Origin: Psammoneis japonica
Taxonomy: Eukaryota
Assembly: GCA_008632985.1 (NCBI GenBank)
Contig: QPGO01000040.1
Span: 191,719-255,718, forward strand
Reading direction: 5' to 3'
DNA: 64,000 bases
In this document: positions 3,321-62,140 of the stretch, in pieces
Layout: the number at the start of each line of letters is the position of its first letter
Position numbering within the stretch: the stretch's first letter is position 1
Made by a program: the position numbers and the translations under genes
Notes under the pieces: model-generated
Told to the model about the DNA's origin: nothing
Seen by the model: the letters and a program-made list of their open reading frames with translations, nothing else
The model's database searches: none

Positions 3321-3943
3321 TCTTTGCCTATGTTAGATTCGACCTCTCGGAAACATGCCTTTTCGTGTCGCTGAAGCGAAAAAAAGAAGAATAAAGAATT
3401 GCGGGAGTGTGGAGTGATTTTATTTCGATTGACTTTGTGTTGCGAGATAAATCAGTTCGTCGACACCACTCACCACGTTAGTCGTTAAGTATGAATACGT
3501 GTCGTACTAATATGCTCTTCGTCAAAAATCATGTGCAAATGATGAAATGAAGACTGACGAGATACAATATTTAACACTCACGACTAACAGATTCCCGTTG
3601 AAGACGAATTTTTTAGTCTAAGAAAAATGTCGCTTTCCTCTTCTACCCTAAGTAGGAGACAAAAAAGGCTATTGCGAGACAAAATAATTTGGATGTAGAA
3701 GTATGATAGACCAGTTCGCGTTTTTGAACGACATATTCATATTATTAATATTTTTCATCGTACAGTAGGGCCTAGATCTCGATGAATGTGAACACTCCTT
3801 CAGCGGAGACAAAGATTTAAGTACAAGAAATAGGCTCTCTACTAACTTGCTAGTAGAGAAAGCCTCCCTACACTCTACACTCTAGTTCGAGAGAGAACTA
3901 CGAGAGACGAGAGAGAATGAAACATCTAATTTATCAGACTAGT

Positions 3944-9406: not shown

Positions 9407-9474
9407 AACTAGTGTCGCAACTTATTTCGCTGACAATTGAAACTAGTGTCACAACTTATTTCGCTGGCAATTGA
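9407..9474. repeat. 34-bp tandem duplication at the left edge of TpA-depleted domain 1
   Basis: aactagtgtcgcaacttatttcgctgacaattga (9407-9440) followed by aactagtgtcacaacttatttcgctggcaattga (9441-9474); 2 mismatches. Confidence 0.9.
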
Positions 9475-11693
9475 GTTTGAAAGTCTCCTTCGCCTTGAAA
9501 TACAGCATGTGATGGAAAGCAAAAGCCGAGCATGCTGAACAGCACACAACAACAACAAAATAAACAGATGGATGGGTGGAAGGAACAACAAAAGCAGGAG
9601 TGGAGCTGCGGCGTGGGAAAGTCCAGCAGTTGGAAAGGTGGTCGGAGAGGGCAAGACCAAAACAGGGAGATTTGGGTGGCAGGCTGAACAGGAAGAGTGT
9701 GAGCTGGAGCAGTCGGAGGAGTCAAAACAGGGTGGCTTGAGAGGAGGGGGTGGGATGATGGAAGGGGAGGGGTTGTGACAGTGGCCAGAAAAAGGAAGGT
9801 GCAAAAGTGACAGCCAGCACTGCCCAAGTGTGGTCAAAGGTAAAAGGAAGAAAAAAGATGCCTGCCTGGTTGGTGGCAGTGATGCTGGAAGAGCTGTTGG
9901 AAGAAGGTGTGCTGCAGCCTGGACACCTTTGGCTGCTTCACAAAACCCCTTGGTCTTTGTGCATTTTTGTTGCATTGATTTTAAGGCCGGTGACCAAATG
10001 TGGAAAGAATGGACCAAGAAATCATGACATCACTTTTCATTGGTTGTCACAAGGGTGGCATGTCACAGCTTGTTTTTGGCTTGAATTTTGCCAAAACAGC
10101 CAGGTGAGTGCAGAGTGCATTTGTCCACCAACTCTTGTGTTTGTTGTGCATTCTTTGTGTGTGCCAATGAAGGTCAGATGTGAATCAAAATCTTGTGCAT
10201 CATGGCAGCACGTGCTGCATTTTGGAGAATGGGTGGCTTGCACCAAGCCTCAGCTCAAGCAAAACATGGACAGATCCCAGAAAAAAGAGCACAATGCATG
10301 CAAACAAGAGTCATGGCAATTGGGCACAATGTGCTGGCAGATCTTGTTGCAGTGTCTCTGGTCCAAGCACAGCCAGGATGACCCAACCTTTCATTTTGAT
10401 GTGGGGGACAACAACTTTGGAGAACAAACTTGATGGTGTCATCACACAACAGACAATGTGCGCACACTGTGACTTGAAGCACCCTTTTTTCTGTGTGCGA
10501 TGTTTGCTGTCTGCAGCCAGCTGCACACAAGACACAAGTGTGCTCTCTTCTTTTGTTGTGCAAGCCCTCCATTTGTTTTTGAGTGTTTTGTGTTCTTTCT
10601 GACAGGCAGCAACAAGTGCTTGCAACCTTTCACACCTGAAAACTCATCTTGCACCACTGGCAAAGAGTGCCTGTCTTTCAGTGGGTGACAGCAAGAAGTC
10701 ATTTCCCACAACTTTTTTCTTGGGCCTCTTTTCTGGAAAGAGAGTGCACAAAAGAAAAGACTTGAGAGACAGCTGAGCAGCCACTGTGTGCTTGAGCAAG
10801 TCTGAATGAACCACAGTCAGACAAAGCAGAGGGGCTGGAGAGGTCAAGAGAGTTGGGAAAGCAGCCACAAGCAAGGCCCCATTGACCAAGTGGAAGATGA
10901 CAAGAGGCTTGGTTGAAGCAGCTCTCTGTCTGTTTGTGGGTCACAAAAGAGGAGCACACCTGCGGCATGGGTGGAGAGGGTGCCAATGTGGTGGTGCTGC
11001 AATTGACTTGACAGCCATCATTTGAAGTCAACAAAACTTCAGCTGGCATGCAAAAAGTTGGCACAAAAGAAGTGTTGACAAAAAAAGTGGCAGAGCATGG
11101 GTGAAGTGGCAAAAGCAGTGTGGCTGTGCAAAAAATGACAAAAAGACCTGTGTTGTCTGGGCAGGGGCTGGAGCTTGAGCCATTTGGTGAAACCTGCATC
11201 AATCAGAAAGCATGCAGGGGGTCCCACCCAGACAACCTGTGTGCTGCAATTCAGTGGGTCCAAGTCATGGCACAGCCTGGGCACTTGCCGCAACAAAGAA
11301 AAATCTGCACAGCAACACAGGCTGCTCTCTGGTTTTCTAACAACATTGGGCTGTGAAATCATCACAGTGTTGCCAAACAGCAGCTCCCTGTGTGTGGCAG
11401 ACAAAGGTGGAGGGCAGAAGCATCAAGAAGCTCAATGACAGGATTTGAACAGGATTTGGGTGCGCGCGAAACATCACGCACTGTTTGGTTTACCGCGCAC
11501 AGTTTTGTGTGCTTTAGTTCCGCGCGTTCGCGCGCGATGCAGTTTGCTTTCGAGCCACAAGGCTCACAAGAATGATGACAGCAGCCCGGTTGTGCCGACT
11601 TGCACGTCTTTTGGCTCCTGCAACGGTCTCTGAGCGGAGACTCATCTGCCATTCAGACAGCAGCAAGGAGTTGTTGTTTGAATTCTTGCCATT

Positions 11694-11711
11694 TGCCTTC
11701 AATTTCTGTCA
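11694..11711 (+). repeat. Left copy of an 18-bp direct repeat flanking the copia fragment
   Basis: tgccttcaatttctgtca, identical to 18091-18108. Confidence 0.92.
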
Positions 11712-14700
11712 GATTGACAGTCTTGCTCATTGTCAACCCATTGAGCAACCGCCATCATCGTCGTTGATTTACCGACGACGCCATTTCAATTCTGTGTGGA
11801 CCTCCGCATGTGTTCTACATACATCGGCAAGTCCACACGCATTCAACACCAGGCATCGGCAGGAATTTAACGTCACCGTCAAGTCTCCTTGCCACTGGAT
11901 GTCTGGATTGATCACACTGCTTTTGATCGCTGAAGACACGCATCAACGGCCATGGCCAAGTCTGTCCTTGATCCTCATCCCTTGACATGCCCATTCATTG
12001 GTTGACGGTCAAGAACCCTGCATGTTCAAGGATCTTCGTCGCTGAAGACATGTGTGCGTGCACATCTTCACGGCCAAGAACTTGCACCCACTCTTCGGAC
12101 CACGGTTTTGCCACCACTCTACAAGCACACCGAGTCCATTGCACCTGATCCACCCCGGACTGCTGGTGCTCTGCAGATCTGCTGGGTCCACGAGGACAAC
12201 TGTGAGAGCAAGCAGCCGTGATTGCAGCCTGCGTTGGGGCGAGGGTGCTTTCCCGCGTTTGTTCATCCGTCCACAGTGCCTGACGCCTGCGTCAACTGGC
12301 CTGCCTGATCGGGAAATCCAACCGACATAAAATAAGAACGGTTCGGGGGTCTTGTCCACCTCCAGTCAGCTCACCTGCAGGGGTTTGCAACCCGCTGCTC
12401 TGCTCGTGGGCAACCCAAAGCGCCGCCAGCTGCGGGTTCGGACGTGCCGGCACAACTCTGCGGACCGGATGGGAAGTTTAGCACTTGACAACGAATGGGA
12501 CAGCACAGCCCAGCGACTTCTGATTTTCAAGGCAGTTCAAGATTTCAAGTCAAGTCTGTTTCAAGTCAAGTCTGTTCTCACCCAAGTTTCAAGTCTACCT
12601 TCGCTTCCCAACAAGAATTGCTTGTCCTGACACCACTTTTGTCCACCATGGTTCTCACTCGTCAGCAACAAACTGATGGTTTCGAGCACGTTGTTGGAAC
12701 CGTGCTTGCCCAAGGTGCTGGGAGCCCTCTTCGTTTGGCTTTGACCCAAGATGGCACGGACTCGCATCAAGAACTGTTCACGTTCATGCCGTCCCAAATC
12801 GACTCGCTTGAGTGCGACAACGGCACTGATGTGATCCCTTTGCCCCGCGGTTATAAGAACATGTTAGCAGCTCCAATTGGTCTGTACATTGTCAAAGCAC
12901 ACGAAGGTCTTGACGTTGCCAATGACTCCTCGTTGTTCACGCATGACGAGTTCCTTGCCCACCGCCTCAGCCCCGACTGCATGTCTTCTGTGTCCATCGG
13001 CAGCTCACCCCTCGCACCTCCACATGTCACCAACCCGACCAAGGCACGTGACCCGGTGCGAGACTTCAAGCGAGGCATCAAGCGTGATCCCACCGCTTTC
13101 ACGGCTCTCAAATCCGACAAGCAGTGGCACACTTGGCACACCTCACTTGTGGCACAAGCCCGTGCCCAAGATGTCGAGTGCATTCTAGACTCGTCGTACA
13201 AACCGACCAGTCCCGAAGACAAACTGCTCTTTGCTGAACAGCAAAAGTGCATGTTCGCCGTCTTCGAACGCATCCTTCTCACCGACAAGGGCAAGGCTCT
13301 CATCCGTGAAAATGTGGGGTCTTCTGATGCCCAGACCGTCTGCCGCGCCTTGTCTGAGCATGCGCTTGCCTCCACCCGCGCATCTGTCGAGTCCTCCACC
13401 TTGCTCACGTGCCTTGCCACCGCACGTCTTGGTGATGGCACTTGGAAAGGTCCGACCCACGGGTTCATCCTTCATTGGCAAGATCAGTTGCGCAAGTGCA
13501 AGGCACTCATCCCGGCCAGTGACCACTTCTCTGAAGGACAGAAGCGCGTCATGCTCGAGAATGCCGCACACCCTGTCGAGGAACTCCGTGCTGTCAAGAA
13601 CCAAGCTGATCAGCATCGCACGCAGAGTGGCAAGAGCCTCACATGCGATCAACACTGTGGCTTGCTCCTCTCCGCGGCAGCTCAATGCGACAGTGCGTTT
13701 CAACCCAAGACGACACCTCGAGCTCCCCGACGTGCCATGTGTGCACACGATGTCTGCTCCAACGAACCGTCCGACGATGTGTTCTGCAACATTGACGTCC
13801 TTCAGGCCAATGCTGCCTGCACCCGTGGTCCCAGCCTCACCGGTGACCAATGGAAACGTCTCCCTCCCGACCACCAACGGATTTGGGATTCGTTGCCCCA
13901 TTCCTTCAAGGTGATCATCCTTGAGCATTCTCGCCCGCCTCCCCGCAACCAGCGAGCCAGCAACTGCCATGAGTCCATTGCGGCCAACCTTCACAACCAA
14001 CGCCTTGGGAGTGACGGTGATGTCAACTTGTCCAACACGACTCCTGCTGACTCTGGTGACCCTGCTCCAAATGTGGAAGCCACGTCGGATGATCCCATCC
14101 TGGCGCACCTCACCAAGCGCAAGCCACTGCCACCCGGTGATCTGCAACGTCTGTTGTCTCCTAACCAAGCCCCCAATGCCAGTCGACTGGGGCCACCCGC
14201 TGCTGCCTCTGCCCCACCAGCTTCTGCCGATGACATGGAACTTAACGGCCGCACTCACCGCCGCGTCAAAGACCACAATGTCATTTGCTCTGCCTCTGCT
14301 CATCGCTCCACATGCACTGGTGCTCTGGTCGATCGTGGGGCCAATGGCGGCATTGCTGGCGACGACGTTCGCGTCATTGCACGCACCTCTTGCCAAGTCG
14401 ACGTTCAGGGCATTGATGACCACCAATTGGTGGACATCCCCATTGTCACCGCTGGTGCCGTCATTGAGACCCAGCGTGGTCCCGTCATTGCCATCCTCCA
14501 TCAGCGCGCATGCACGGGCAAGGGCAAGACCATTCATTCCTGCGGCCAGCTCGAATGGTGCAAACAGGATGTCAACAATCGCTCTGTCAAGGTGCCCAAC
14601 GGCTTGCAACGTGTTGCCACTCCTGATGGCTGTGTCATCCCAATTGACATCAAGGGCGGCCTGCCTCATGTTGCTGTGCGACCTTGCACTGATGCCGAAT

Positions 14701-17700
14701 GGGACACCCTGCCCCATGTCATCCTCACTGGTGATGACACATGGGATCCTTCCGTCCTCGATCACTCTGTCACTGACGACGACCAGTGGTGCGACACGAT
14801 CTCTGACCTGCAGGACGATCCCACTGCCAACCCATTTGACGAACACGGCAACTGCCATCATCGTGTCGTTGTCAACGAGACCATCATGTCCGCTTCCTTG
14901 TCTGCCGATCATGCGTTGGCCCTCGATGATCACCTCATTCCGAACAACGACGTGTTCTGCGAGTGTCATCTACACGCGATTGACCCCAAGGACGATGACG
15001 TCCTGCCCCCGGAGCGCACTGTGCAGCCCAAGGACCCCCCCTTCGAGTCTCTTCGGCCTCACTTTGGCTTCCCACCTGCCGATGCGGTCCGTCGCACTTT
15101 TGACTGCACCAAGCAGTGCGCCCGCATGCCCGCCGGCACACACCTTGGGAAGGCCTGCAAATCACCCAACCCCACCCTCAATGTGCACCGCCACAACGAG
15201 CCTGTCGCCACTGACACCATTCATGCCGACACCCCGGCCATCGACTCTGGTTGCACCAGCGCCCAACTGTTTGTTGGCACCGAGTCTGCTGTCACTGACG
15301 TCTGCGGCACCAAGACGGACAAGGAGTTTGTCAACACACTCAAGGATCAGATCCGTGAGCGTGGTGCCCCATCCAAATTCATTGGCGACCGTGCTCAAGT
15401 TGAGATCAGCAACAAGGTGCTCGGGATTCTACGAGCCCTCTTCATCTCCAGCTGGCAAAGTGAGCCTCACCAGCAACACCAAAACTTTGCCGAGCGTCGA
15501 CACCAGACCGTGAAGCACATGGCAAACACTGTCATGGATCGTTTTGGTTCGCCTGCCCACACATGGCTGCTGGCGCTCATGTGCGTGTGCTTCATGCTCA
15601 ACCATGCAGCGTCCCCAAGTCTCCACTGGTGCACGCCCCTCAAGACTCTCACTGGCTCCACCCCGGACATCAGCCCATTGCTTCGCTTTCACTGGTGGGA
15701 ACCCGTGTGCTTCCACCTCGATGACTCCGATTGGCCGTCCGAATCCCGTGAGTTGCGTGGACGCTTTGTTGGCATTGCTGAGCACGTCGGCCACCAGATG
15801 ACCTTCAAGATTCTCTCTGACGAGACTCAGAAGATCCTCTGCCGGTCCAACGTCCGATCCGCCACCACCGATCCTGCCATTCGAAACCTGCGTCTTGATC
15901 CTCCTGATGGGGAGCCACCTGAACCCATCATCAAATCTCGCCATGACGACAACCCCGTCGATTCTCCTGATGGGGAGATCAGGACACCCAAGATGCCAGT
16001 TTTCGATCCGCAAGACATCATCGGACGCACCTTCCTCATGCAGCCACAAGAGGATGGACAACGCCACAGAGCTCGCATCGTCAAGGCCGTCGAAGACCAC
16101 GAATGGAAAGTGAACGGCAATCCCGAGCTCACTGAGTTCGTCTGCTCTGTCAACAACGACGAATGCGAGGAAGTCCTTGCCTGCAACGACATCATGAATC
16201 ACATTGAGCAAGAAGACGAAGACACTGCTGTTTGGAAATTTCGACGCATCGTGCCACACGAAGGACCTCTGAAGCCTCATGACCCAACCTGGAAAGGCTC
16301 AAGCTACAACATCATGCTTGAATGGGAAAGTGGGGAGATCACGTCCGAGCCTCTTGCCATCATCGCCAAGGACGACCCCATCACCTGCGCCATCTATGCA
16401 CGAGAGAACGGACTTCTCGACACTGATGGCTGGAAGCGGTTCCGCGCCATCGCGAGGCGCCAGAAGAAGCCATTTCGCATGGCCAACCAAGCCAAGCTTC
16501 GCTCCTTCCGCACTGCACCTTGCTGCAAGTGCGGATGCGAAGTTCCCCGGAACTGCAAACATGCCATGTCACCAGACGAATGCAATGGCAACCGCAAATG
16601 GGGAGACGCAACTAATCTCGAGATGGACCAACTCGGGGAATGCGAAGTCTTCCATGACTGCGGGCCCTTCGAGTCTTCCACTCCTCCTGCTGGACACAAG
16701 AAGATCCGAGTGCACCCAGTGTACGACGTGAAACACGACGGTCGCCACAAGGCACGACTTGTAGCCGATGGGCACCTCACGGACGTACCCATCGACAGTG
16801 TCTGCTCCGGAGTGGTCTCCCTCCGTGGCCTTCGGCTGATGATTTTCCTGGCCGAACTCAACGAGTTGGAGACATGGGCCACCAACATTGGCAATGCCTG
16901 CCTTGAAGCCACCACCAAGGAGAAGCTCTACATTGCAGCCGGACCCGAATTTGGCAAACTCGAAGGACACATCCTTGTCATCCACAAGGCCCTGCATGGA
17001 CTGCGCAGCTCCGGTCTCCGCTGGCACGAGCGCTTCGCCGACTGCCTGCAAGCTGAAGGCTTCTTCCCCTGCCACGCTGAACCCGACATTTGGATGCGCA
17101 GGAACGGCAACCACTGTGAATGCATTGCCGTTTGTGTGGATGACCTCGCCATTGCCATGAAGGACCCTCAATCTTTCGTCGACACTCTCACGGAAAAGCA
17201 CAAGTTCAAGCTCAAGGGTGCGGGACCCATTGAGTTCCATCTGGGTTGCGACTTTTCCCGGGATCCTGACGGCACCTTGTGCCTGTCTCCGCGCAAGTAC
17301 ATCAAGCGCATGGTCGACAGCTGCACCCGACTGTTTGGGGAGAAACCTGCCACCAACGCCCTGTCACCTCTGGAGAAGGGTGACCACCCCGAACTGGACA
17401 CTTCCGAACTGCTGGAGCCCGATGGCATTCACAAGTTCCAGTCTCTTGTTGGTTCACTCCAATGGGCAGTGTCCCTTGGTCAAATTGACATCACCACAGC
17501 CGTCATGTCACTCTCCAGCTTCCAAGCTGCGCCCCGTCAAGGCCACTTGGATCATGCCAAACGCGTCTGTGGGTGCCTCTCCAAGATGCAACACGGCGCT
17601 CTCCGCGTTCGTGCGGAAGAGCCCGACTGTTCGGATCTCCCTGCTCCGGCCTGTGAATGGATGCATTCCGTGTGCAGCGAAGCAGAAGAGATGATCCCGA

Positions 17701-18090
17701 AGGACGCTCCACCGCCCCTTGGCAAGTTCGTCACTGCCACCCACCATGTCGATGCAAACTTGTGCCATTGCATGCTCACCGGATGCTCTGTCATGGGAAT
17801 GCTCCACTTCCTCAACAAATTCCCGGCTGATTGGTTCTCTAAGAAGCAAGCCACCATGGAGACTGCGACCTGCGGGTCTGAATTTGTTGCCGCAAGGACT
17901 TGTGTCGAGCAGATTGTCGACCTGCGCATCACCCTGCACCACCTTGGCGTCCCGATCCGCAATGTCAGTTGCATGTTCGGTGACAACAAGTCGGTTGCAG
18001 ACAGTGCCACCATCCCGCACTCCAAGTTGCACAAGTGACACACCGCACTGTCGTTCCACCGTGTGCGCGAGGCAATTGCCTCTGGTCACC
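11712..18090 (+). mobile_element. Ty1/copia LTR retrotransposon (diatom CoDi-like), truncated: partial 5' LTR/leader, no 3' LTR
   Basis: Single gag-pol ORF in copia order: protease (ALVDRGANGG), integrase (ATDT..D..IGDRAQVE..QNFAERR), RT, RNase H. Homology stops abruptly after FHRVREAIASGH at ~18090. Confidence 0.95.
12648..18090 (+). pseudogene. Hypermutated gag-pol polyprotein (frame intact, many missense changes)
   Basis: About 1800 codons without a frameshift and only ~8 Tyr. CVDD at 17133-17144 replaces YVDD; also ALHGL, GNACLEA, ATCGSEF, SCMFGDN. Premature TGA at 18036-18038 falls in KLHK(R)HTALSFHRVRE (CGA->TGA). Confidence 0.92.
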
Positions 18091-18108
18091 TGCCTTCAAT
18101 TTCTGTCA
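18091..18108 (+). repeat. Right copy of the 18-bp direct repeat
   Basis: tgccttcaatttctgtca starts exactly where RNase H homology ends. Confidence 0.92.
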
Positions 18109-19029
18109 CTCAAAACAGCAAGCTCTTTCCATCATGGCAAATGGCTGAGTGGCAGCTCAGAGCTGGGGCACTGCTTGACAAGACATTGACAGCATGCTCT
18201 TTTGTTTTTTTTGCACATGGCTGCTTTTGGAGAGCCCCCATGATTTGCAAGGCATGCCAGCCAGCATGCCGCAACGTCACGTGTGCAGCAAGCTCAGCCA
18301 ACAAGAAGGCACAATGACCAAGTTTTCTGACCAAGGCTTTGAGCCCTTCTCTGCTTCTCAGATTTTGTCTTTGTCAACAGTGCTGGGAGAAAAAACTTGT
18401 GTGCACTTCCCTGTTCTGGAGCAGCCAGCTTGCTCGCTTCTCTAAAGTCAAGAACACACTTCTGCCATTCGCTGCTGTGGTTTGTGTCACATTTTCAAAT
18501 GAAGGTTTGAACAACAGCAACAAACAATGCTTGATGTGTGTGTGTGTGGTCTCTCATCATTCTTGTTTGTTGGAGAGGATGCTTTCCTCTTCAATGGTGC
18601 CAAGAAAGTGCGCACATTTCCGAGCAGAACCAACATTGTTTCTTTCTCAGCTGATGATTCCAACTCGAGATTCGATTCCAGTTCAGCACTGTGACCGACC
18701 GTCTGGAGGGGCAATAATGCACGCCAGATGCTTGGTGGCATTCATAGTCGTGTATTGGACACTTTCGCATTCAAAAATGAAACAAGATTTATGCGTAAGA
18801 ATGTCCGTCCAAAAGATACGACCGAATTGATTGAATCCTTGCAACGTGATCATTTTATGTGATGGTCATGGAACCAAACACTTAAACTGATTGAAAGCAA
18901 CAAAGAAGGAAAGAAAAGGTAAGTATCCAGCGGTTTGTGTAGTTACCATGTTTTCACAACACATGGTGGTGAACTCGACATTGCCTTTCTCTCTCTTATG
19001 TAGCACAGACAATAATCACGAGACCCATC

Positions 19030-20208
19030 ATGAAGCTCTTCGCAGCCGGACTCCTCCTCGTCCTTAGCATCGCTGGTGTCATCTCGGCCGTCAACGGAGA
19101 ACAAGGACTGCGAGCTTCTGCTTTCGAAAAGAATGAAGAAACCGACATCATCAACAGTAACTCCAACATGCGTCAGCTTGACTCGGACAGCCGGCCTTGT
19201 TTCACGGTGAAGAAAACCGCACACGGTCATTCAAAGCCGTGTACTGTGAAAGAGAAGAACAGCCGCCGTCCTGCGTCTTACATTATTGGAGGAACTCCTG
19301 TCGAGAGCGACGAGTACACCGATGGCGTCGGCATCCTTCAAGTAGCCGGTCCGGATACCGTGTACACAGACCCCTTTTGCAGCGGCACCCTAATTAGCGA
19401 GCGTGTGGTGCTTACCGCAGCTCACTGTCTTGACGTGGGCAGCCTGGGCAACCCAATCGCGGTTCCTCCTGATCAGATTAAGGTTTACTTCGGCACCAAT
19501 CCCGAGGAAGAGATATCGAGAGGCACATTTAATGACTACGTCGTTGATGTCGAAGAAACCATAATCCACCCCGACTACAACGATAGGAGGTTGTTAAAAG
19601 ATATTGCCCTAATCCGACTTGCGGTTCCGGGAACTCTTACTGGTTCCACTCCCGTCCCGCATCTTCCATCAAGCATGGCCCTCAAACGTCAAGACATTGG
19701 GACTCAACTCTACTTTGTGGGATTTGGTTTGGATGATATCAACAACCCAAGCACAACCGTGAAACGATATGGTGCTGGCGTCACCCTGGAACGCATCACT
19801 AAGGATCCTGGCCTTCGGTATGCCCAGGATGGCACTAACGGGCCTTGTTATGGAGACAGCGGTGGAGGAACCTATGTTGTCAAGGACGGCAATACTTTTG
19901 TAGCCGGCGCCGTTTCCTATGGCGATGCACAATGCAGCAGCTATGGCGTCAGCACCAAGGTCGACGAGTTTGATGATTGGATCAACGGATTAATTGGTGT
20001 TACCACATCTTCTTGTGGTGATGGGACGTGCGACCCGGATGAATCCTGCAACAACTGCGTATCGGATTGTGGTGAATGTCCCAACGAATGTGGGACAACG
20101 CAATCTGGGAAAAAATGCAAATCACCTACGCAGTGCATCTCCTGCGTTTGTGTCAAGAGAAGTAGCTCTGATAAGTTTGGCCAATGCGAAGAAAAAAGTG
20201 ATTGGTGA
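19030..20208 (+). CDS. Secreted S1 (trypsin/chymotrypsin-fold) serine protease with Cys-rich C-terminal tail
   Basis: Signal peptide, IIGG activation site, and triad motifs LTAAHC, DIALIRL, GPCYGDSGG. CGDGTC..DESC..C..DC tail. Intronless. Confidence 0.93.
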   Translation: MKLFAAGLLLVLSIAGVISAVNGEQGLRASAFEKNEETDIINSNSNMRQLDSDSRPCFTVKKTAHGHSKPCTVKEKNSRRPASYIIGGTPVESDEYTDGVGILQVAGPDTVYTDPFCSGTLISERVVLTAAHCLDVGSLGNPIAVPPDQIKVYFGTNPEEEISRGTFNDYVVDVEETIIHPDYNDRRLLKDIALIRLAVPGTLTGSTPVPHLPSSMALKRQDIGTQLYFVGFGLDDINNPSTTVKRYGAGVTLERITKDPGLRYAQDGTNGPCYGDSGGGTYVVKDGNTFVAGAVSYGDAQCSSYGVSTKVDEFDDWINGLIGVTTSSCGDGTCDPDESCNNCVSDCGECPNECGTTQSGKKCKSPTQCISCVCVKRSSSDKFGQCEEKSDW

Positions 20209-22366: not shown

Positions 22367-22529
22367 TTATCTCTTGAGAGGCGTTGATGGTTGATGGTTG
22401 TTTGAATATAGATGTTTGCGATTTGCGATCTTTTTTTATGATGGGTGATGGGTGATGGGTGCGAGCGATCTTCCGCCGATGACGAACACAAAATGTAGTG
22501 GAAACCACTTTCTATCCCCAAATAAAAAG

Positions 22530-25500
22530 ACAGACAGACAAGCGAGCGCACCAGAAGATGACAACGCCTGTGGCACACGCCTGTGTGATGTCATCTGCTC
22601 TGACAAAAATGGCATGTTGTGCAAATTGCACAGTTCTTGGTCACACAAGTGCATTGTTTTGTCACACAAGGTTGCCATCAGAGGGGCCTCACTGATCAGT
22701 GATGAGCTGCATCATCCTGCTGCACATCATGGCTCGGGGGGGGGGGGGGTTGGTGGCTGCTGGGTGCTGCTGCCCCTCTTTTGGGCCCTCTGGCAGGCAA
22801 TGCTGAGGTGAGTGGTACAATTTTTTCACACCAAGCCTTTTCAGCCAGATCTTGGCAACCTCTGCACACTGTGGTTGCTGTTGACACAATGCGGTTGCTT
22901 CTTCATTCACCCATTCTTTCTGTTTGCATTTGAAGCTCCAAAGTCAGAAAAGAAAAATGAGTGCGCTGCTCACTCTCCCGCACACACACCAGGCATGGCG
23001 GATTGAGATGTTTGTCATGTGTGAAATTTTGGTGCACATGCACTGTTGCCTTTTGCCAGTTGCCCATCAGGACAAAATGGAGACAAAGACCTGTTCAGGC
23101 TTGCAAAGCGCAGGCGCAGTGGAAGATGTGGCGTTCCTCAGGGACACTTCATTGCCAGTGCTCTGGTGGCGTGTGTGTTGCCAGCCAGCTCAACCAACAT
23201 CTTTCAAGGTGCTGAGCAGAAGATGTTTTTGATGTCACTCTCCTTGATGAGCACTGATCTTCTCATTGACTTTTTTGTGCAGCCCAGAGTGGTGCGTGTG
23301 AGCGGGGCTGGCTGTTGTGTGATGCGCTGTCAGATGTGCCTGCTCTGGCAAGTGTCAAGTTGGATCACACTGGCTTTGATGGCAAGATTCTCTCTGGCCA
23401 GCTGCAGAAGGACAAATCCATTGCAGACAGAAAGGCAGTGACAAAAATCTCTTTGACACAAGCCAAACAACCAATGGCAGACCTCCAGATTTCTTCCATC
23501 CAGAGTTGTTGTTGCAGCCACTGGTGCTGCTTGGTTTCCAAGCTGGAGATGGGGTTCTTGATTGCCACAAACACAGCAATGTCTCATCGACAAGTCACCA
23601 ACATTTCACATGTGCACCAAATTGTGCTTGGGCAGCAGCTGGGTTGCCAAATCAGAGGACATGTGACTTCTTTTGACAGGCTGGCATGAGACACAAAAAC
23701 AGGAACCCATCCAGAACACAATGGAGCTAAAACATGATTCATCCATCAAGGCATTTTTTGCAGGCTTTGATTCATGCAAAGACCACAGCTGGGAGGAAGA
23801 CAGCTGGAGCAGTGTGCAAGAACATGCTGTCATTGTAAAGAGCTGACAGAAGCTCCTGATGACAATGAACAACTTTGCCTTCATCACACATGAAAGTGCC
23901 ATTGTGTCAACTGACACTTGTGTGATCATGACAGACAAACAACATTGGCGCAAGTCTCCACTGTTTTGATGACTGGTCATTTTGGCAAAGTTGTTTGTGC
24001 CACAAAAGTGCAACAAGGAGCAATGGGACAATTTTGCGCTGCACAAAGAAGCTGTCATGTTGCTGATGATTCCTTGAGCAAATGAACCTTCTGAAAAAAA
24101 AACTGACATGGCCTTGGTTGTTTGTTTGAGCAGGGCAGTCACTTTGCCACCATTGTTTTGTTCATTGGGTTGCAGCAAAAAATGCATTGGAAGTTCTGCA
24201 CCTCAGCATGCAGTGTTGAATGGAATGTCATGATGTGCTGGTGGGGCAAATCACCAGCAAGTGTGGAAGACATTTTTCTTCACCATTCACATCCTCTTCA
24301 ACAATTTTTCAAAGTCACACAACAATGAAGCTGCAAAACAAGAGCATCATGTGCTGGTGCACATGTGTTCTCCATTGTGAAATGTTGTGCAATTCAATGT
24401 TTTGTCCTTCCCATTGTGGCCCACTTCCAACAATCACACCATGCAATGAAAATGACATGAAAGCTGGACCATGTGATGGTTGTTCTGACTTGCCATGCAC
24501 AATGATCACCATGTGCAAATGTGGCAATGTCATGATGGCACTCCAGATGCATGCAGTCATGCTGCTGCCTGTGCCACACAACCAATGTTCACATGGCCAC
24601 AGCAGACTCCTGGCATGACTGGACCTGCTGCAGTGTGACAGCAATTGCCAGACCTGCTTTTTCATTTTTGCCAACAGCAATCCTCTGTGCCAGCAGCAGC
24701 CTTTGTGACCAGGCTGTGCCCCACATTCCAACATTGTGAAACAGGGTCAGTGCAACAAAAAAGAACAACAAGAGAAGCAAAAGGTGGAAATGCAACATCT
24801 CTGTCAAGTGGCCACCAAGCATCCTTTGCTCAAACCAAAGTGTGTGCTCCCACTGGAAAGATGTGGCCCTTGCAGAAAAAGGCAAAGCCAAAATGAAGCA
24901 TGGAGCCAAGGTCTTGCAAGGGCCCAAAACATTTGGGAAGGATGATGTCAAAACAAAGGTGAGATGGTTGGACCACAAAAAAGATGCTCAAGCTCCACAT
25001 GAGAAATGCACTCCAATCAATCCATGTCATTCTTGTGGCACACCAAGGCACCTGTGAAAAATTCCTCCTCTCAACTGATCTGATCATTGTGAAAAAACAT
25101 TGTGAGCAAACTTTGCTGTGCTGAACATGTCATCCATGGTGACCAGCACTTTGCAGGCCTTCCAACAAAGTTGAGCCAGCGTGGCAATGATGGCACAAAC
25201 CAAGAGTGCTGCATTTGCTCTGAGAAGATTTCAACAGAAAGGATGGTGTGACAACAACTGCAAAGTGTGTGTTCCCAATGTGTGCATCCATGTTTTTCCC
25301 ATTGATGCTGTTCCCCTGACATGGATGAGAAGAGGCTCCAGGACGTTCTTTTTGCAGACAGCAATGCCAACTTTGACATTTTCCATTGAACACTGCATGA
25401 CTCACAACAGTCATCAATGACACACTGTGCTGCACAGCTTCAAAGCACAGCAATGTGCCAATTGCTGACTGTGGGGTGCGTGCATCTCTTGTCCTGGATG

Positions 25501-28320
25501 GGCTCTTTTCCAAGTGACAACCACACCCGCCCCCCTGTTTTCACTTTGCAGTTTGCCTCATTTGCTTTCTTGCCAGACAGCATCAGGTCATTGACAAGAT
25601 GTGTGCCCCAGGGCATGACAAACACATGTGTGACCTCCACAAAAAAAGCAGGCAACACGACTGCATGATGTCCTCAACCAACTTCATGTGCAAAGGCTGC
25701 TGCCAAATTGGATCTTGCCCCATCCCTGCCAGCGGATCAAATGATGCCTGCCTTGCCAACTTCCTTGCCACACTGTTGCCACTCTGAAGATTGTGAAAAA
25801 GTGCAACTTTCATGAAAGCAGCCAAGACAGCACCACATGCTTCTCCCATGACACCGCGGACCTCTGCTTCAGCCCTGACAAAGTGGACAGAGCCTTTTGT
25901 GAACTTGGGTGCACTGTTGACCTCCCAAAACTGCCTCTGGCAACACCACCAATGTCAACAACAATGACAGGGCCAATTGTGCCATGCACAACAATGGAAA
26001 ACCCCACCTCTTTGCAGCAGTGTGGACATGCGCTGCATTCAAAATGTCCTTTGACAGCTTGACACCACCCTGCAACAAATGACAACTGACTCTGGAGCTC
26101 TGCTTGGTTGTTTGTGAGAACTCCAGGGCACAATCCAAGATGTCAGCTGAGTCAACTTCCCAGCTTGCTCATGACCCAGTCAGCTCAGCAGCCCACCCCA
26201 TGTGTGCCCTGCCTGGTGCATCTCAAAACAAAAAATGCTTTGCCAAAAACACACACACCACACAAATTGCATTAAATTGATGCCCTTGCCAACCCACAGC
26301 GCAGTTGCAGTTTGCCAAGGCAAGTGCATCAAGCGGCGCAGGAAGCCCAATGAATTTCCTTTTGGCGATCCTTTGGAAAAGCGCTGACAAAAAAAAGAAA
26401 AGAGTGCAAACTGTGTGGCCCACACAGCAGTCATGTGAGAAAAATTGTCAAGACCAGCAAACAATGCCCGGCCACCAAAAAAGTCATTTCAATGCCAGCA
26501 GTGGCAGCACCCAGCAATCCCTCCAAAAGTTGTCTTGACACCTGATGCTGCAGCGGCACCCAGCAATTTCTCTCTTGTTGAGAGATGGGGGCCAAGCATC
26601 ATCTGAAAAAAAGAGTTTGTGTTGCCTGGAGCAGCCTGCTTTGTGAGAGCTTGCAGCTGATCCAGAGGCACAAAAATGTTCTTTTTTGTTGTCAACACTG
26701 ATCTTGTGCTTGGGTGTGCAGAACCAAGGTTTGTAAATGCTTTGTTGGGCTCTCTTGTTTCCAGGTGGGAATTTTGTCTTCCACCAGCTGTTGCTGATTT
26801 GGCTCCTGCTCTCTCAAAATTTTGACAGCTTTTGGCTGACATGAGAGCCTCTGCAGGCAGAGTGCCAAGAGGTGGTGCCATGTGCTGCACATGAAAAACA
26901 TGCTGGGTGGAAGAACACACCCCCAAGCATGGAACAATGACATGATGCACAAATGAGAAAAGAGAAGGAGGTTGTTGTGGAAGGCAAAAACATGTGCCCC
27001 ATTTTGTGATTTGCAAGAGCCCACAGAGAGCTCTTGTCCAAGGCTGAAAAGGAGGAGCAGTTTTCCTTGGGGCTGGCTTGCATCAGAACTCACATGCTCA
27101 ATTGATGTGCATGTGAAAAATTGCAGCAAAATTTTCCCATGTTTGTTGATTGTTGCTCTTGCTCTTTTGGGTTTGCTGGCCACACAGTCAGCAGATTTTT
27201 TTGTTTTTGATCTTTGTGCCACATGGTTGCAAAATTTTGAAGTTGTCAGGGAGTGAACAGAAGATTGGTTTTTCCCTCCCATCAATTTGCATGCATTGCT
27301 TGTTTGTGCTTCCAACAACAAGCATCTCAAGCAGCTCCTTTTTTCATGCTTTGCTGTTGGGAAAGAGTGCAACAGATCTGAGCCAGCTTTGTGCTGCCAG
27401 TCTCCATGTTGCTGAGCTGACACTTGCCACACACAAGAGTGCATGTTGGTCACACCAGGTTGCTGCTGGATGGTCCTCACTGATCAGCCATGAGCTGCAT
27501 TGCTGGTCAGTGGTTGCCCCCTCTGGATCCTCACACTTCAGGTGCACCTTTCTTGTTGTCATGTCTTTTTAGCTGCTGGCAGTCTCACAGCACACCAGAC
27601 ATGTGCGCCATGCTCCAAAAAATTCACCTGAGGGAGCTTGGAAGATGCGCTGATTTTCACTTTCACTTCACGCAACAACGACATCTCTGCCATGACAAAA
27701 CACAATGCCACGTGCAATGTGCATCAAGTCAATTGCACCTTGACAGCATGGAGCCAGTGCCACTGTCTTCATTGAAAGATGGCCCAAGAAGCTGGGGTGA
27801 AAATGACACATCTGTGCTTGCAGCTGGGGCGATGATTGCTGCAAGATCCAGGAACACTTTTGCACTCATGCCATTGCTGGAGAGTGCCAACCTTGTGCTG
27901 GTCAGTGCAAGCAACTGCAGCATTTGGGTGACTCAGAGAAGCAGGCAAAATGGAGAGGTGCTGCGCTGTTGAACCTTGGCACATTTGAAAATTTGGTTGC
28001 GAGCTTGGAATCGGTGCCAGCCACGGGGGGCAAGAAAGCATCAATGCCACGCACCAATCCCAGCATCAGAAATGAAAGAGCTCGCTGATGCCTTTGACCC
28101 ATGATTTGTTGTTGCAAAGAAAGGAAAAACACTTTTTTCATTGCTCCAGCTTGTCAAAGGAGTCGCTTCTTGTCAAGACAGCAAGAAGCCGTCGTGCAAC
28201 AACAACCGCAAGGAAGCCCATGACAAGCAAATGTCCTTTGCAAAGCTTGATGATTGTCAGCATGCTTTTAAGGAGTGCACCCTTGCTGAGTTTGCAAGCA
28301 AAAATGAAGGCTTCAACAAG
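22530..28320. other. TpA- and CpG-depleted hypermutated domain 2 (decayed, unidentifiable sequence)
   Basis: TA almost absent (rare survivors near 22816 and 26734), CG rare, strong TG/CA excess; only short Cys/His-rich ORFs. Confidence 0.93.
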
Positions 28321-28870
28321 AAAAATTAACAGCCTCCTCCCTTGCTCCGCCGGTGTGGCATGGAATCATCACCGCATTGAGCAAAGGCTGGGGTGATGCA
28401 CCTGAAGGAAAGCAAGAGGACAGCAAGCTGCAGGAAGCGTAAAGCTGACAACCCTCCTCCTCCTGAACCTTCATTTGTTGCTGATGAGGTAGAAGATTTC
28501 TTGACAGATGTTTTCTTGACTGCACAACTCGGCGTGTCGGTGCCAGTTGACGTCGGAAGAATGGCACGCCACTCCCGTAGCAGCCAGGACTTCGGTAGAA
28601 CAAATGACTTAACGATGTGGAATAACATTTAATGCAATAAGTGTTTTTGGTCCTTAATTGACTTACTTAACTCTTGCCTCTAGGTTTTGTCAATGGTCAT
28701 TTTCTATTTAACGAGTTCGGATCTCATCACTGTCAAACGACCCGGGCGTTCGCTGTCCTCGCAGAACGCGAAGACGCCGACGTTGTTTTTGTGATCACTC
28801 TCCACTGTTCCGTCCTTCCCATTTCTCTTCCCTTTTTATACGACTCCTGCAATCTGAAGAGACAATTGCA

Positions 28871-56859: not shown

Positions 56860-57029
56860 CGTAGCGTCCCGGACGTACCGGCATGCAGACGCCGGTGCCA
56901 GAACTTCTGTATGTGATGCTGAAGGCGGAGCCTGCCTTGCCTCTGGGCGACTCATCATCCGATGAGGAGTCAGAAGTGAACCTTGCAAGAGGGAGAGGAT
57001 CGACAACTCCTCTCACTGTTGCAAGTAAA

Positions 57030-60000
57030 CCCAAGAATGCAAATGAGAGTTGCAGCTCTTGTCCCAATGATCTCACCAGGCAGGACAGGCAACTGTGCTT
57101 TCCTTGTTGCAACAGCAACTTGGGGCTCACAACCCTGTCCTGCGTGTGTGTCCAATTCGTTGTTTGCGCAGTGACCAGGCCCTGCAACACATTGAGTTGC
57201 AGCTGACACAGCAGTGGGTGGAACACTTTGTTTTGAGACAGCACAAACATCCTGCTCCCCCCCACAAAAAATGCGTGGGGCTTTGCTTGACAAAAGATCG
57301 CTGGCGAGAACAATGTGCACAACATCGCACGCAAGTGCATTGTCAGTGTTGCCAGCACCCCACACCCTCAGGTGTGAAAACAAGCACTGCATCTGAAACC
57401 AGAGACACACCACTGCCACCACCCCTGCATTTCACCCCACAGCACCACAACACATCCAGCCCCATTCTCCCAGCTGTGTGAGTTTAGAACCAGGCCCAGC
57501 ACCCCCCTGGCTGCTGGCTTCCTCAACAGCGCTGCACATGGATCACATGTGAGCACAAGTGCCATTCGATTGAGAGTGGCTGCTCCCATTCCACAGAACT
57601 GAGAACAAATGAGCTGGGCCCGGTGAGCCCACACACCATTCTTTGTGGCTGCAGTCATGTTGTTTGGCCCAGAGCCGCGAGCTGCCAAACAGCATCAAAC
57701 TGTGACATCTGTGCTCACCCAGCTGCATTGACCAAATGACATTTTGCAATCACACAGCAGAATTGTTTGACGATTGCCCTCTTGATGTGCAGCTTCTCCT
57801 TCAAGTGACAGCTGACATGCATGCAATGTTTCTCATTTTGATGTGCACCTCTTCAAGCAACATGAACAGCACAGTGTGAATGTGTGCTCATGACACCCAG
57901 TTTCTGCAACAACAAGTTCAAGAACACATCTCCATGCACATGTCAACGCCATTGAAGAAAACAAAAAGAGCTCTTTTTTGTGTTGCTGCACAATGCATGC
58001 TGAACTGGGCAGTTTGTTTCTCCCCTCTTGTTGTCACAGAAATGAAGTTGTGTTGTCATTTCCAGCACATGTCCGTCCCACACAGTTTGTGAAGAGCTGC
58101 CTGCTGTGTGTGCAGCAGCCAGATGATTGGCCACAGAACCATCTCTGATGTCAGTGTTCAGGTCAGAGGTCAGAGGTCAGAGGTGTGGCAACAGCACAGA
58201 CAAGTTTGCAGTCTTTTGATGGCAGAATTTCATGGTGGAGCATGCGCCAGCACTGCACCGTGCAGTGGCAAAATCCCATGAAAAAAGCAAAACAAGATGA
58301 GCTGCAAGATGATGTGCACATCAGCCATGCACACATCAAAAAATGATTCTCTCCACTGTCACATCATTCTCCACCTTTGTGCTCTTTGTGATCTCTGCCT
58401 GGGCAGAAGGCAATCTTGAACGTTGCAGACTTCAGATGCAGCTGCAAGATGCCAATCCCACCATCAATCCCAAACAGCTGCAGTGCCCCCTTTCTGATGT
58501 CTTTGGCACCAATGATGCATTTCAGTGCACCAGGAGCCACTGCAGCGAGCAGCCCTGACATGCCTGTTGTGCATTGGAAGATGGTTTCTTCCACATTGAA
58601 GGTCGCCAGGATGGATGCATGCGTGACATTCAGTTGTGGTTCAATGAATGAGCACAGTGGAAGCTTCAATTGTGGCACCCCAACCAGTGCAATTGTTGGC
58701 AAGGATGCTGATGTCATCAAATTTTTGGGTGGTGTTGGCGGATTGTCCAAGTGCTGCTGCCCCAGTTCATCAGCTGCCAATGAAGCATTGACACTTGCTC
58801 TGGACATCTGATTGGCCGGTCTCTTCCAGATCAGACCCTCTGACTGTGATGCAGGATGCAAGCTTGGTCCACTGTCCCAGAGCTGTGTTTTTGATGCTGC
58901 TGTTGGTGAGTGTCAATTCAAGCCAAATGCCTGCTCCAATGTTGCCAACAGCAGTTTGTGCCTCAGTCTTTCTCCTGGAAGCCACAAGTGCATCTGCAGT
59001 CCAGGCTTTGAGGGGGGCAACGGTGCTCTTTGCTGAAATGCAACGATCAAGCACTTCAGTTTTGACAATGGCAGAATCTGCAAGCCACATCCTCCAACCA
59101 CACCGAGCACTGTCAAGGATGCTGATGGCAATGGACATGCGACCGCCATTGATTGTGATGACTCAGACCCTTTGGCAAACCCAGGGGCCACAGAGACATG
59201 CAAAGATGGCATCAACAATGACTGTGGTGGCACTGTGGACAAAGCTGATTGTGTTGAGGCACCCTCAGATGTCCCGTCTGATGAGCCTTCTGCTCTGCCC
59301 TCAGATGACCTCCCATCTTCATCGTTCCAACCATCAAATGAGCTTTCTCTTCCATCCCAAGTCAAACTCCATCTGCATTTCCTGGTGTCAGCTCACAGCC
59401 TTTTGTGCTTCCATCTGGCAAGCCAATTGTCAGCTTGATGCCATCACAATCCCCATCAAGCACACCAAGTGAAATGTCTGCATTGGCTCATCCCTCTTGG
59501 GCCCCTTTCTTCCATCCCAAGTTCAACATGCAGCAGACCAAACAGCTGTGCCAACACCGGCATTTTCTTGGCCTGCAAGATGCATCATGATGAAGGATTT
59601 GTCAGTGATGATGACTGCCCTGTTGATCCAGGTGGCAGAGTTGCCTGCTTCATGGTGTGCTGTGACCAAACCAACAATGGCGGTGGCTGGAGGACTCTGT
59701 GCACCTGCTTCCCCTGGATCTTCAGAGTCACTGAAAATCTCATCAACCACATTGCTGACCATGTGCGGTGCAACAATTGTTCAATCTCCAAAGATGAACA
59801 CTGCCCTGGTGGGTGCTTTGTGACAACATGATGGATGGCATGAGGTTTGTAGACAACAATGGTCGAAACTCAAAATGCCAACATTGCGGGGGCAAAGCCA
59901 GAGGCTGCCAGGTGCAAAACTCCCTGGGACCATGACACCCATGTGGCCAATGGCACAGAACATGCAACATTTGCTGTCCACATCTTTCATGGTGAGTGTT

Positions 60001-62140
60001 TGGATTGTGCACTTGTCAGGGCTTAGATTGTTCTGTGGCATGGACAGGCAGCAGAGGGATGTGCCAGTTGAACAGAGAACATGGCATTTCCCTTCCTGCA
60101 AAGAGAGCAGTTTGCAGTCTTCATGTCCTGAAAGCAAACTTTGGGAGCATTGGTTGAATGAAAGTTTCACAGATGTGCCAAATTGGCGCATTTCAAATGG
60201 ACAGGAACTCGCCAGCATTTCATTTTGCTTGCGTTGCCCCACATTGTCCTTGACTGACTGAGCTGGTCAACAGAAAGGCAAACTGTCACTCCATCATGCA
60301 CCTGTTCTTCAAGGAGTGCACATTGTCAAAAATTGAGTGTTTGGCATCAAGGTAGAAACTCAAGTTGTGTGACACTGGAACTTTGATGCAAAATGCAGCA
60401 GCAAAAACTGTGCAGCATCAGCACACACCTGACCACTGCCAGAGGAGCTCTTTCTCAGAAGTCTGCATTGTTGGTCTGATTTGTTGTGTCCAGAGTTTTG
60501 TTGCCAGCACATGCATTGTTTGTTTGTTTTTTATGGAGAACGTGCACACCCGTTGAAGATCTGTGCCATGAGAAGCAGCATGAAGAGAAAGGCACCTGAG
60601 GAAAAAACCAAAACCACTTGAATTTGAAGCAGGAACTCTGTTGAAATCGATGCTCAACATGACATTTTCCAGAGTGCCACACTCCGGTCATTCTTTTGTC
60701 TCAAGTGAAATGTGGTGCCAGTGTTCATTCTCTAGAGGCACATGTGCAACACTGCCAGTCATCAAAGCCAGTCCAATGATCACCTGGAAGACTTTTGGGT
60801 TGAAATGAACACAGTGTGCTGGTTGCACAGGGTGTCTCCATTGGTCTCCAATTTGCACCAAACAAGCTGTGCTGCCAAGCACACACACTGCACTCTTCTC
60901 AAAAAGAGCTGGTTGCCACTTCAGCTGTGGCAAAGCAATGGTTTTCTTGGCTTTCCAACAAATGCTTGAGTGGCTGGCTGTCATTGTGCTGGCAAAATGT
61001 GTGTTGTGTGGGTGAAAAGTGGGAGGAAGTTCTTTGGCATTTTGTTTGTGGGGTGACAGCTGAGCTCATCTCATTGTCTGGATTGTGTGCAAAAAAAGAC
61101 TGCAGCCAGGGTGGAGAACAGAGAGTGCTCTTCCTTTTGTGGCTGACGTCATTGACACATGTGATGTTGTTTTCCCCAGTCCTGGCTGCTGATGACCTCT
61201 CGTGGAAAAGGACAAGCAGCTCTTGAGTGTCCGCTCCTTGTGTTGTTTGAGCAAATGTGAAATGCAGAGAACAAAAGCCTCAAATTGTCTGGATGCTTGC
61301 AAAGCAACACTGTGCTCCACGTTCTCAATCTTGTCAAAACTCAGCATGGTGACCCCTCTGTGCACAAGCTCAAAGGTGAAAAAGAGCAGCCTTTGAGATG
61401 GCTCAGTGTGCTCAGTGCAGCCTTGCTGCTTTGGCCTGCCTGCTGTTTTTGTTGTTGTTGAAAACTGACTCTTCAGCTCAAGACAAGCCCAAGCAACCAC
61501 ACGTTTGGTTGGCAGCACACCAGCTTCTTTGTTCTTTTGCAACCTTGCTCCATGCAGTCCAAGGAGCCACAATGAGAGCACAGAAAGTGAGGTGCGGCAC
61601 TGCAGAAAAAAGAAGCTGTGAACTTGGTGGCAGCAATGGCAGCCAAGATCTGGCTGTGTCAGCATGTTGCAAGTCCACCCTGTTTGCTGACAAATCTGAT
61701 TTGATTTGCAAGCTCTTTCAAGAAGTGGCGGGGCCCAAGGAGCTCTGCCCACTGCCAGCTCCCCGTTGGCCACTTTTCCACCAGGTCGAGGTTCTCGAAA
61801 ATGTTGCGGCAGACATTTTGTCAACAAATGTCACCGTTTGCATTTGGAAGTGGTCCAAAGGTGGTTGTGGCATGCAAAGAAATGCTGGCCATTGCATCAC
61901 CCCCTTCCCAGCAACTGCGTGCTTGTGTTGCAGACAACAGATGGTGTGCAAGCACTCAGCAACACACTGGAAAGTTCTGAAGCGACAGCGCTGACATTGA
62001 CACAAAGCGACACAGGATGAAGGCCTTTGATGGAGCGAAAAGAAGCCTGCATTGTGACAGAAGATGGCAAATTATGATGACCGCCACAGAGGCAGAATTC
62101 GCCTTGTGTTGGCGAAAAAAAAAAAAATGGGCCTCTGCTC
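57030..62140. other. TpA- and CpG-depleted hypermutated domain 3
   Basis: TA seen only a few times (near 57486, 59849, 60025, 60353, 60733); CG sparse; TG/CA excess; ends at a TA-rich palindrome. Confidence 0.93.
58343..59830 (+). pseudogene. Hypermutated pseudogene of a secreted multidomain protein: EGF-like, MopE-type Asp/Cys repeat, PS linker, fibrinogen-like start
   Basis: Signal peptide at 58343. ECQFKPNAC..CLSLSPGSHKCICSPGFEG (~58905-59015). DADGNGH...DCDDSDPLANPGATETCKDGINNDCGGTVDK (59118-59245). FMVCCDQTNNGGGW (~59648-59690). Internal stops and frameshifts. Confidence 0.78.

Follow-up and report, generated by a model that had tools for sequence, protein, structure and literature searches.

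TpA dinucleotides are lost much faster than CpG dinucleotides from repeat copies of the diatom Psammoneis japonica after insertion

A 64,000-nt stretch of the Psammoneis japonica genome (assembly GCA_008632985.1, 91.4 Mb; contig QPGO01000040.1), hereafter called the window, contains at positions 11436-18108 a copia long terminal repeat (LTR) retrotransposon nested within older decayed repeat DNA. Comparison of this insert with other copies of its family revealed that TpA is converted to TpG or CpA site by site in the chromosome, that CpG is lost more slowly, and that both losses accumulate together, conclusions that we hold with high confidence. We propose that two separate mutational processes operate on repeat copies after insertion. 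The fast one is an A:T>G:C transition converting TpA to TpG or CpA, on either strand and faster if C or T follows the A, and the slow one converts CpG to TpG or CpA at a rate approximately 20 to 50 times lower. The slow process is probably ordinary deamination of 5-methylcytosine (5mC) in methylated transposons. In the fast process, an enzyme of the TadA/ADAT type or a relative, directed to silenced repeat chromatin and acting at a low continuing rate rather than in bursts such as those of repeat-induced point mutation (RIP), may deaminate adenine to hypoxanthine, which the following round of replication takes for G. Elements would be disabled through changes of their Tyr codons, the promoter ends escaping for a while. 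We assign a probability of about 0.5 to this two-process statement taken as a whole, targeted adenine deaminase included.

Nearly all TpA has been lost from three blocks of the window (approximately 9560-18715, 22524-28578, and 56911-62073). Between positions 11712 and 18090 of the insert, 28 TA remain (observed/expected ratio [o/e], 0.09), versus ~179 expected at the window background o/e of 0.6, together with 412 CG (o/e, 0.82); the 5' LTR (11436-11711) retains 2 TA and 19 CG. The left flank (9500-11435) contains 5 TA (o/e, 0.04) and 11 CG (o/e, 0.10), the right flank (18109-18740) 2 TA (o/e, 0.05) and 12 CG (o/e, 0.33), and the two other blocks, domains 2 and 3, have a TA o/e of 0.02 each and CG o/e values of 0.14 and 0.20, respectively. 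A prior sequence-only reading, in which the insert was almost TA-free and CG-rich and both dinucleotides were scarce in the flanks and in domains 2 and 3, is borne out by these counts (TA o/e, 0.02 to 0.05; CG o/e, 0.10 to 0.33 for the flanks and domains). Depletion of TA was limited to repeats, with o/e values of 0.02 to 0.09 in repeat blocks versus 0.61 to 0.65 in gene-rich DNA, where the CG o/e was 0.94 to 1.02. Since the insert is nested inside old repeats, it is younger than its flanks, and, with loss of TpA saturating first, a young insert is poor in TA and rich in CG, old DNA lacking both. The flanks had been described as unrecognizable. This holds for Pfam, since 13 open reading frames (ORFs) of the flanks and of domains 2 and 3 gave nothing above the cutoff, but not for the genome, which contains distant relatives: the left flank had transition-rich matches at three other sites (scores of 313 to 324 versus 67 to 89 for the reversed query), and a relative of the right flank (L242) scored 450 versus 57.

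Family searches listed 405 to 407 candidates each, 40 of which were scored per search. The comparison was based on 40 stretches of 10 kb. Twenty of these were nearest the TA-richest copy (the reference, L171, plus 19 copies referred to as young), and 20 were nearest the window copy, with which they form the old set of 21. In a 3-kb stretch compared among 57 copies, the number of TA ranged from 10 to 67 per copy, the window copy having the fewest, and individual sites were mixtures of TA, TG, and CA. The least-changed copy, L171, has 227 TA in 7,102 bp (body TA o/e, 0.60), with 46 TA sites at positions 277-800, the leader region. Of the 208 TA sites and 468 CG sites that were scored relative to L171, 86% and 16%, respectively, are gone from the window copy (3 TA and 29 CG sites were dropped for lineage differences or low cover). 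At the 68 Tyr codons of L171, the window encodes 44 Cys, 14 His, 8 Tyr, and 2 other residues, and in the reverse transcriptase (RVT_2) region, Cys or His occupies 7 of 9 conserved Tyr columns. Because L171 keeps TA and Tyr codons, the family is not TA-free; a consensus already devoid of TA, which the sequence-only reading had named as the finding that would count against it, was not seen.

A family that was TA-poor from the outset, contradicted by the body TA o/e of L171, or an artefact of assembly or base calling is the least probable of the explanations that we weighed. Evidence on artefacts came from contigs of run X1, as opposed to raw reads, and X1 may be the very sample behind the assembly. 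A single contig spans 9000-11461, through the TA-free left flank and into the LTR, with 4 differences in 2,462 bp and a depth of 61.9 versus 58.8 to 67.1 for neighboring gene DNA, and a second one (18091-19500) has 1 difference; contigs of runs X2 and X3 cover little of the window. Misreading of a base on both strands would break the left-flank contig, which weakens the artefact explanation. In favor of that explanation, the one difference of the second contig is a TA at 18739, where the assembly has CA. This and two other contig-assembly differences lie near domain edges (TG versus CG at 9714 and TA versus AA at 9901) and are possibly allelic or recent. The signature also occurred in related metagenome loci (58 to 70% protein identity; six other assemblies, judged by record prefix): at least three Tyr>Cys/His changes at nine conserved columns were present in 35 of 80 loci, a proportion that is no estimate of prevalence, since the query carried converted residues. 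The number of such changes tracked low TA content (rho, -0.85), and control columns rarely changed.

At 224 TA sites, the 40 copies displayed TG (3,431), TA (2,626), CA (2,121), CG (14), and, together, 25 instances of the next four states, so that both A's of one site had changed almost never (14 of ~8,200). In the young copies, conversion of TA to TG affected 2,131 of 5,811 bases (0.367), and transversions at TA numbered 13. Substitution of G for A elsewhere was found at 48 of 12,938 AA (0.0037), 56 of 17,760 GA (0.0032), and 38 of 18,094 CA (0.0021). TpA loss is at least 100 times faster than these other A>G changes. Deamination of 5mC is expected to proceed at ~10 to 20 times the background. 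The slow clock has this pattern: CG>TG changes (398 of 18,278; 0.0218) were ~15 times as frequent as other C>T changes (0.001 to 0.002), specific for CpG, and strand symmetric (642 and 585 of 9,535 for the two products). As a separate observation on the young copies (L171 positions 1-7102), A>G outside TA (0.002 to 0.004) exceeded C>T outside CG (0.001 to 0.002), the reverse of the usual bias; this excess may reflect leakage of the mutator or the polarity of the reference.

The bodies of the 19 young copies have lost 1,901 of 3,186 TA versus 269 of 8,563 CG, a hazard ratio of 28. The central claim of the sequence-only reading, that TpA disappears much faster than CpG, is therefore upheld, and equal loss of the two was not seen. 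A site-rate model gave a 45-fold TA hazard per unit of CG hazard (intercept, 0.70 ± 0.36); since fast sites raise this mean and the median site has about half of it, we state a range, the rate of TpA loss being about 20 to 50 times that of CpG decay. The pooled rates were matched by those of LTR pairs, for which no reference lineage is required, CG being discordant in 17 of ~371 young and 70 of ~302 old site pairs and other differences numbering 13 in 3,528 and 30 in 2,744, respectively.

It had also been proposed that the TA:CG ratio could date silenced DNA and that TpA and CpG should be plotted for copies ranked by divergence. The two losses do scale (log-log slope of TA versus CG hazard, 0.92 ± 0.11) and were correlated within sets (old, 0.61, p = 0.003; young, 0.40 to 0.50, p = 0.09 and 0.03), but within sets no relation of TA loss to background divergence was seen (rho, -0.42, p = 0.07 for young copies and 0.15 for old copies). 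Other results speak against a clean clock: the TA:CG hazard ratio varied from 9 to 125 among young copies, and TA site rates spanned ~150-fold from the 5th to the 95th percentile. What survives is dating by rank order with roughly several-fold accuracy. As either process yields TG and CA, such dating depends on alignments of the family. The mutation rate of Phaeodactylum tricornutum is 4.77e-10 per site per division (PMC6604790). If this rate applied, the age of the young copies would not exceed ~4 million divisions, and TA would change at ~1e-7 per A per division or faster, rough figures since the assembly-versus-contig differences (5 in ~3,870 bp) match the background count in size.

The timing of conversion was deduced from the LTR pairs of 32 elements with perfect target duplications. 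At sites converted in both LTRs, the product was the same in 81 of 121 young pairs (79.1 expected for independence) and in 115 of 175 old pairs (110 expected), and close copies shared no products (excess agreement of 0.009 for the 16 pairs that were closest among 595). The exception was three LTR sites with mostly shared states in both LTRs. Since LTR products are independent and close relatives share none beyond expectation, conversion took place after integration, and converted copies rarely founded new lineages. These data refute, as the main route, editing in the element's own cycle, whether ADAR-type editing of RNA or editing of cDNA before integration, which we regard as very improbable; a minor share is possible. 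Edits on one strand only and identical in both LTRs, as expected of ADAR, were not found: the LTRs differ, and antisense changes were nearly as common as sense changes. Also against such editing, loss grew with CpG decay, TAG was slow, and methyltransferase gene copies and a PIF1-helicase stretch had been hit too. The three shared LTR sites, the two A_deamin loci of the genome, and an excess of TG on the sense strand, which was 1.24 to 1.41 after correction for base context (bootstrap, 1.11 to 1.76), are points for such editing.

The rate also depended on the base following the changed A (A, 1; C, 2.8; G, 1.16; T, 2.4), TAY sites being ~2.5 times faster than TAR sites. Strand-coordinated bursts were considered and rejected, the proportion of same-strand neighbors being 0.52 to 0.57 versus 0.52 to 0.55 under the null (z ≤ 1.9); many overlaid rounds could mask strand runs, but a mixture of the two products is present even in L173 and L182, which are lightly converted. 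Residual correlation along copies was 0.06 to 0.11 up to 400 bp, and hardly any indels were present. The patchiness and the mild sense-strand excess are compatible with error-prone filling of gaps during repair of methylated repeats, in which a Y-family polymerase of the Pol eta/iota type would insert G opposite T; in antibody genes, Pol eta makes WA hotspots, and its A mutations are in excess on the coding strand (PMC6423074). This explanation is improbable: WA includes AA, which changed 100 times less than TA, and the near absence of transversions at TA, of strand-coordinated patches, and of indels is unlike the action of such a polymerase.

The same sequence of the same age was converted at different rates, indicating that local state governs access. 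In young copies, TA was better preserved in the 5' LTR than in the 3' LTR of the same element (18 copies; Wilcoxon p = 0.001), with no such difference in 14 old copies (p = 0.28). In 7 of the 19 young copies, chosen after viewing of site tracks, the first 650 bp had lost 14 of 336 TA and the bodies 624 of 1,219. Targets were not limited to transposons. TA-erased DNA harbors copies of a gene for a C5 DNA methyltransferase (L234, L235, and L236/L240; G000 contigs C301 and C297; TA o/e, 0.07 to 0.10); these copies are nearly devoid of Tyr and are 33 to 35% identical to L230 and L237, located in normal DNA. Surplus copies of an epigenetic gene have thus themselves been hit by the TpA process.

Two proposals on the edges of converted DNA were rejected. 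The TA-erased zone was wider than the CG-decayed zone at 6 of 6 window edges but at only 8 of 14 edges elsewhere, so that this is not general; the offset had a median of 16 bp, and some edges coincided with LTR edges. Spreading of TA loss from the copies into adjoining single-copy DNA of the host, as a halo, was not supported. Most copies sit in already TA-depleted DNA, the flanks of L171 being the most normal (TA o/e, 0.40 and 0.48), and L176 is heavily converted in spite of fairly normal flanks. Eleven flanks with normal DNA further out had low TA adjoining the LTR; the one halo case tested, the left flank of L176 (680-1387), belongs to a different repeat, of which it is the end and which has 24 matches, and most of the compared copies of that repeat keep TA at the outer end and have lost it further in.

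Adenine deamination fits the strict TpA specificity, the pure transitions, and the preference for TAY over TAR. Engineered TadA acting on DNA is reported to prefer YAY over YAR (PMC12528748), in fungi Tad2-Tad3 has been turned to mRNA in place of tRNA (PMC11087585), and diatom transposons are described as CG methylated by DNMT5 (PMC9998398). The P. japonica genome contains TadA-like, ADAT2-like, and two A_deamin loci. One ADAT1 (A_deamin) locus would be expected; the two here are separate (L225 and L226/L227), and their scanned exons lacked an RNA-binding or chromatin domain. A genome search gave no match for the AAG/MPG glycosylase. A double-domain dCMP-deaminase-like gene was also found twice (L216 and L217, on C41 and C317), both with normal TA, and may represent two haplotypes.

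Several observations weigh against this proposal. Endonuclease V, which acts on inosine, is present in the genome. The deaminases resemble housekeeping genes, none is singled out, and no chromatin-reader domain was present in the three stretches scanned. Sequence alone cannot separate a hit on A from one on the paired T. The rate at TA sites was unrelated to nearby CG (rho, -0.06 and 0.06; p, ~0.46), and CG loss was not clearly lower where TA was spared (4 of 285 versus 86 of 3,239, a comparison of low power). The copies were picked for nearness to two queries, not at random, which shapes the overall correlation. Engineered TadA also edits CA, which here changes ~170 times more slowly than TA, and fungal Tad2-Tad3 prefers UAG, whereas TAG is slow here.

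A tentative alternative, less probable than deamination by a targeted enzyme but well ahead of the other explanations, is that an enzyme modifies T or A at TpA in silenced DNA and that the modified base then miscodes or decays. The sequence-only reading held that the fast loss fits an active enzymatic process; specificity and rate do suggest one, but a written miscoding mark would look alike. The candidate writer is a RID-related, DNMT4-type protein, the change being the exact reverse of the CpA>TpA change of RIP. Steady, unclustered accumulation on both strands in step with CpG decay is expected of the passive consequence of a mark. The genome has 27 matches to C5-methyltransferases, including three mutually similar family loci in normal DNA, one of them behind a chromodomain ORF (L237/L248; C34:43451-45777). 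Diatom DNMT4 is linked to RID, has reported chromodomain forms, and is described as being of unknown function (PMC9998398), and the chromodomain upstream of the methyltransferase domain at L237/L248 is the layout reported there for some diatom DNMT4 proteins. The DNMT4-like label is tentative, its basis being a motif together with the chromodomain rather than a tree. The genome search gave no Tet_JBP match, which shows little because the control was uninformative. Conversion of T to C by a C5-methyltransferase has no chemical basis known to us. Two partial methyltransferase ORFs showed no SNF2 domain, and DNMT5 was not identified among them.

Features of the insert and of the depleted blocks are collected in Table 1. 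The insert had been taken for a fragment starting at 11712; it is in fact preceded by a 5' LTR, and ~420 bp has been deleted at its 3' end, sparing 18 bp of the 3' LTR. Microhomology created by TA conversion was dismissed as the cause of this deletion, with just ~1 bp shared. A run X1 contig begins exactly at the junction (18091), which may indicate that deleted and undeleted forms are both present in the reads. A perfect 5-bp duplication occurs at the same offsets in 32 of 37 other two-LTR elements.

Table 1. Features of the copia insert, its flanks, and the other TA-depleted blocks (window coordinates)
Feature	Position	Strand	Basis or remark
Left flank, older decayed repeat DNA	9500..11430	.	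Very little TA or CG left
Target-site duplication CTCAA, left copy	11431..11435	+	Sequence
5' LTR, 276 bp, TG...CA	11436..11711	+	Matches 3' LTR of other copies
Leader, LTR to gag	11712..12647	+	TA-rich in L171, mostly converted in window
copia gag-pol frame, no frameshift, Tyr codons changed to Cys/His	12648..18038	+	
Reverse transcriptase domain RVT_2	16686..17321	+	Pfam PF07727, E 6e-24
3' LTR remnant, last 18 bp	18091..18108	+	Direct repeat; alignment jump versus L171
Target-site duplication CTCAA, right copy	18109..18113	+	Sequence
Right flank, older decayed repeat DNA	18114..18715	.	TA change-point 18715
Domain 2, block depleted in TA and CG, with both clocks at a late stage	22524..28578	.	
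Domain 3, TA- and CG-depleted block	56911..62073	.	

As the sequence-only reading had noted, the frame is free of frameshifts, remaining open for 1,849 codons (12489-18038) and terminating at a CGA>TGA stop (18036-18038; CGA in 53 of 56 other copies). Under the genetic code, TA>TG/CA changes are unable to create a stop codon, and the open frame is for that reason weak evidence of youth. The CpG transitions that had been listed stand for this stop and, relative to L171, for positions 16884 (D>N) and 17784 (R>C; CGC in 51 of 56 other copies), but not for T>M, since the Met of CSVMG is encoded by ATG in 56 of 56 other copies and is a family trait. In the mutated protein of the window, neither integrase nor protease was matched by Pfam.

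Elsewhere in the window, two pairs of diverged tandem gene duplicates (29084-31592/32293-35179 and 232-2283/3944-5464) have normal TA and CG. A 1,378-codon ORF (37809-41945) with a Pro/Thr-rich stretch and ~9 internal repeats also has normal TA; repeats within a gene are not affected. Two 34-bp tandem copies (9407-9474) adjoin the left edge of the first TA-free domain on its outside.

The known repeat mutators, namely, RIP, 5mC decay, and AID/APOBEC, all to our knowledge convert C:G to T:A, so that a chromosomal, repeat-directed A:T>G:C process, if true, would be a new kind of genome defense and would imply a natural enzyme with the activity for which adenine base editors had to be engineered. 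On balance, we lean slightly towards the broader view that some diatoms possess such a defense, in which silenced repeats are the target of an adenine deaminase that naturally acts on DNA, or of a writer with equivalent specificity for TpA. Such an activity would be continuous, would affect either strand at a rate hundreds of times that of the background, and would inactivate transposons and supernumerary gene copies by way of Tyr>Cys/His changes, leaving promoters that are still open untouched; with CpG decay, it would form a two-range clock of the time at which DNA was silenced. The TA clock would resolve the earliest period after silencing, beyond the reach of CpG decay. Ages based on LTR divergence are badly inflated in such genomes, since the differences of young pairs are mostly at TA sites. 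Transposon proteins are mistaken for Cys-rich ORFs, and dead DNA, its stop codons gone, has a coding appearance. In the literature, we found no published TpA loss in diatom or other repeats, a mention in the supplement of a genome paper being possible, and no look-alike appeared among the matches listed for the other genomes compared.

In comparison with known systems, the insert itself is an ordinary Ty1/copia element of diatoms (CoDi), with TG...CA LTRs, a 5-bp target duplication, one gag-pol frame, and RVT_2; only its mutation pattern differs. Deamination of 5mC in diatom transposons methylated by DNMT5, as described above, would account for the slow clock and the equal CG>TG/CA changes on both strands but leaves TpA untouched. 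The somatic hypermutation ascribed to Pol eta shares the A>G changes at TA and the coding-strand excess, whereas here AA escapes and there are hardly any transversions. TadA, ADAT2-ADAT3, and the adenine base editors share the A>G change and the pyrimidine before A, as well as, for the engineered form, the YAY preference (PMC12528748). The changes seen here are A>G with T before the A, with a selectivity for T over C far stricter than that of these enzymes. Natural members act on RNA, and we know of no natural genome-wide activity of TadA/ADAT on DNA. RIP consists of C:G>T:A transitions, mainly CpA>TpA, requires RID/DNMT4, and is triggered by premeiotic homologous pairing. Like RIP in Neurospora crassa and other ascomycetes, the fast process is a dinucleotide-specific transition hypermutation that is confined to repeated DNA (the flanks of the insert have relatives elsewhere), acts in the chromosome after insertion, reaches both strands over time, and inactivates transposons and extra gene copies. 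Candidate RID/DNMT4 genes are present, under a family label that is not tree-based. The base change differs, however, with CpA>TpA at 19 of 18,102 sites versus TpA>TpG at 2,131 of 5,811. A round of RIP affects a single strand (PMC7296669), and the corresponding one-strand clusters were not found. Thus, the fast process is RIP-like in purpose but departs from RIP in the properties by which the latter is defined.

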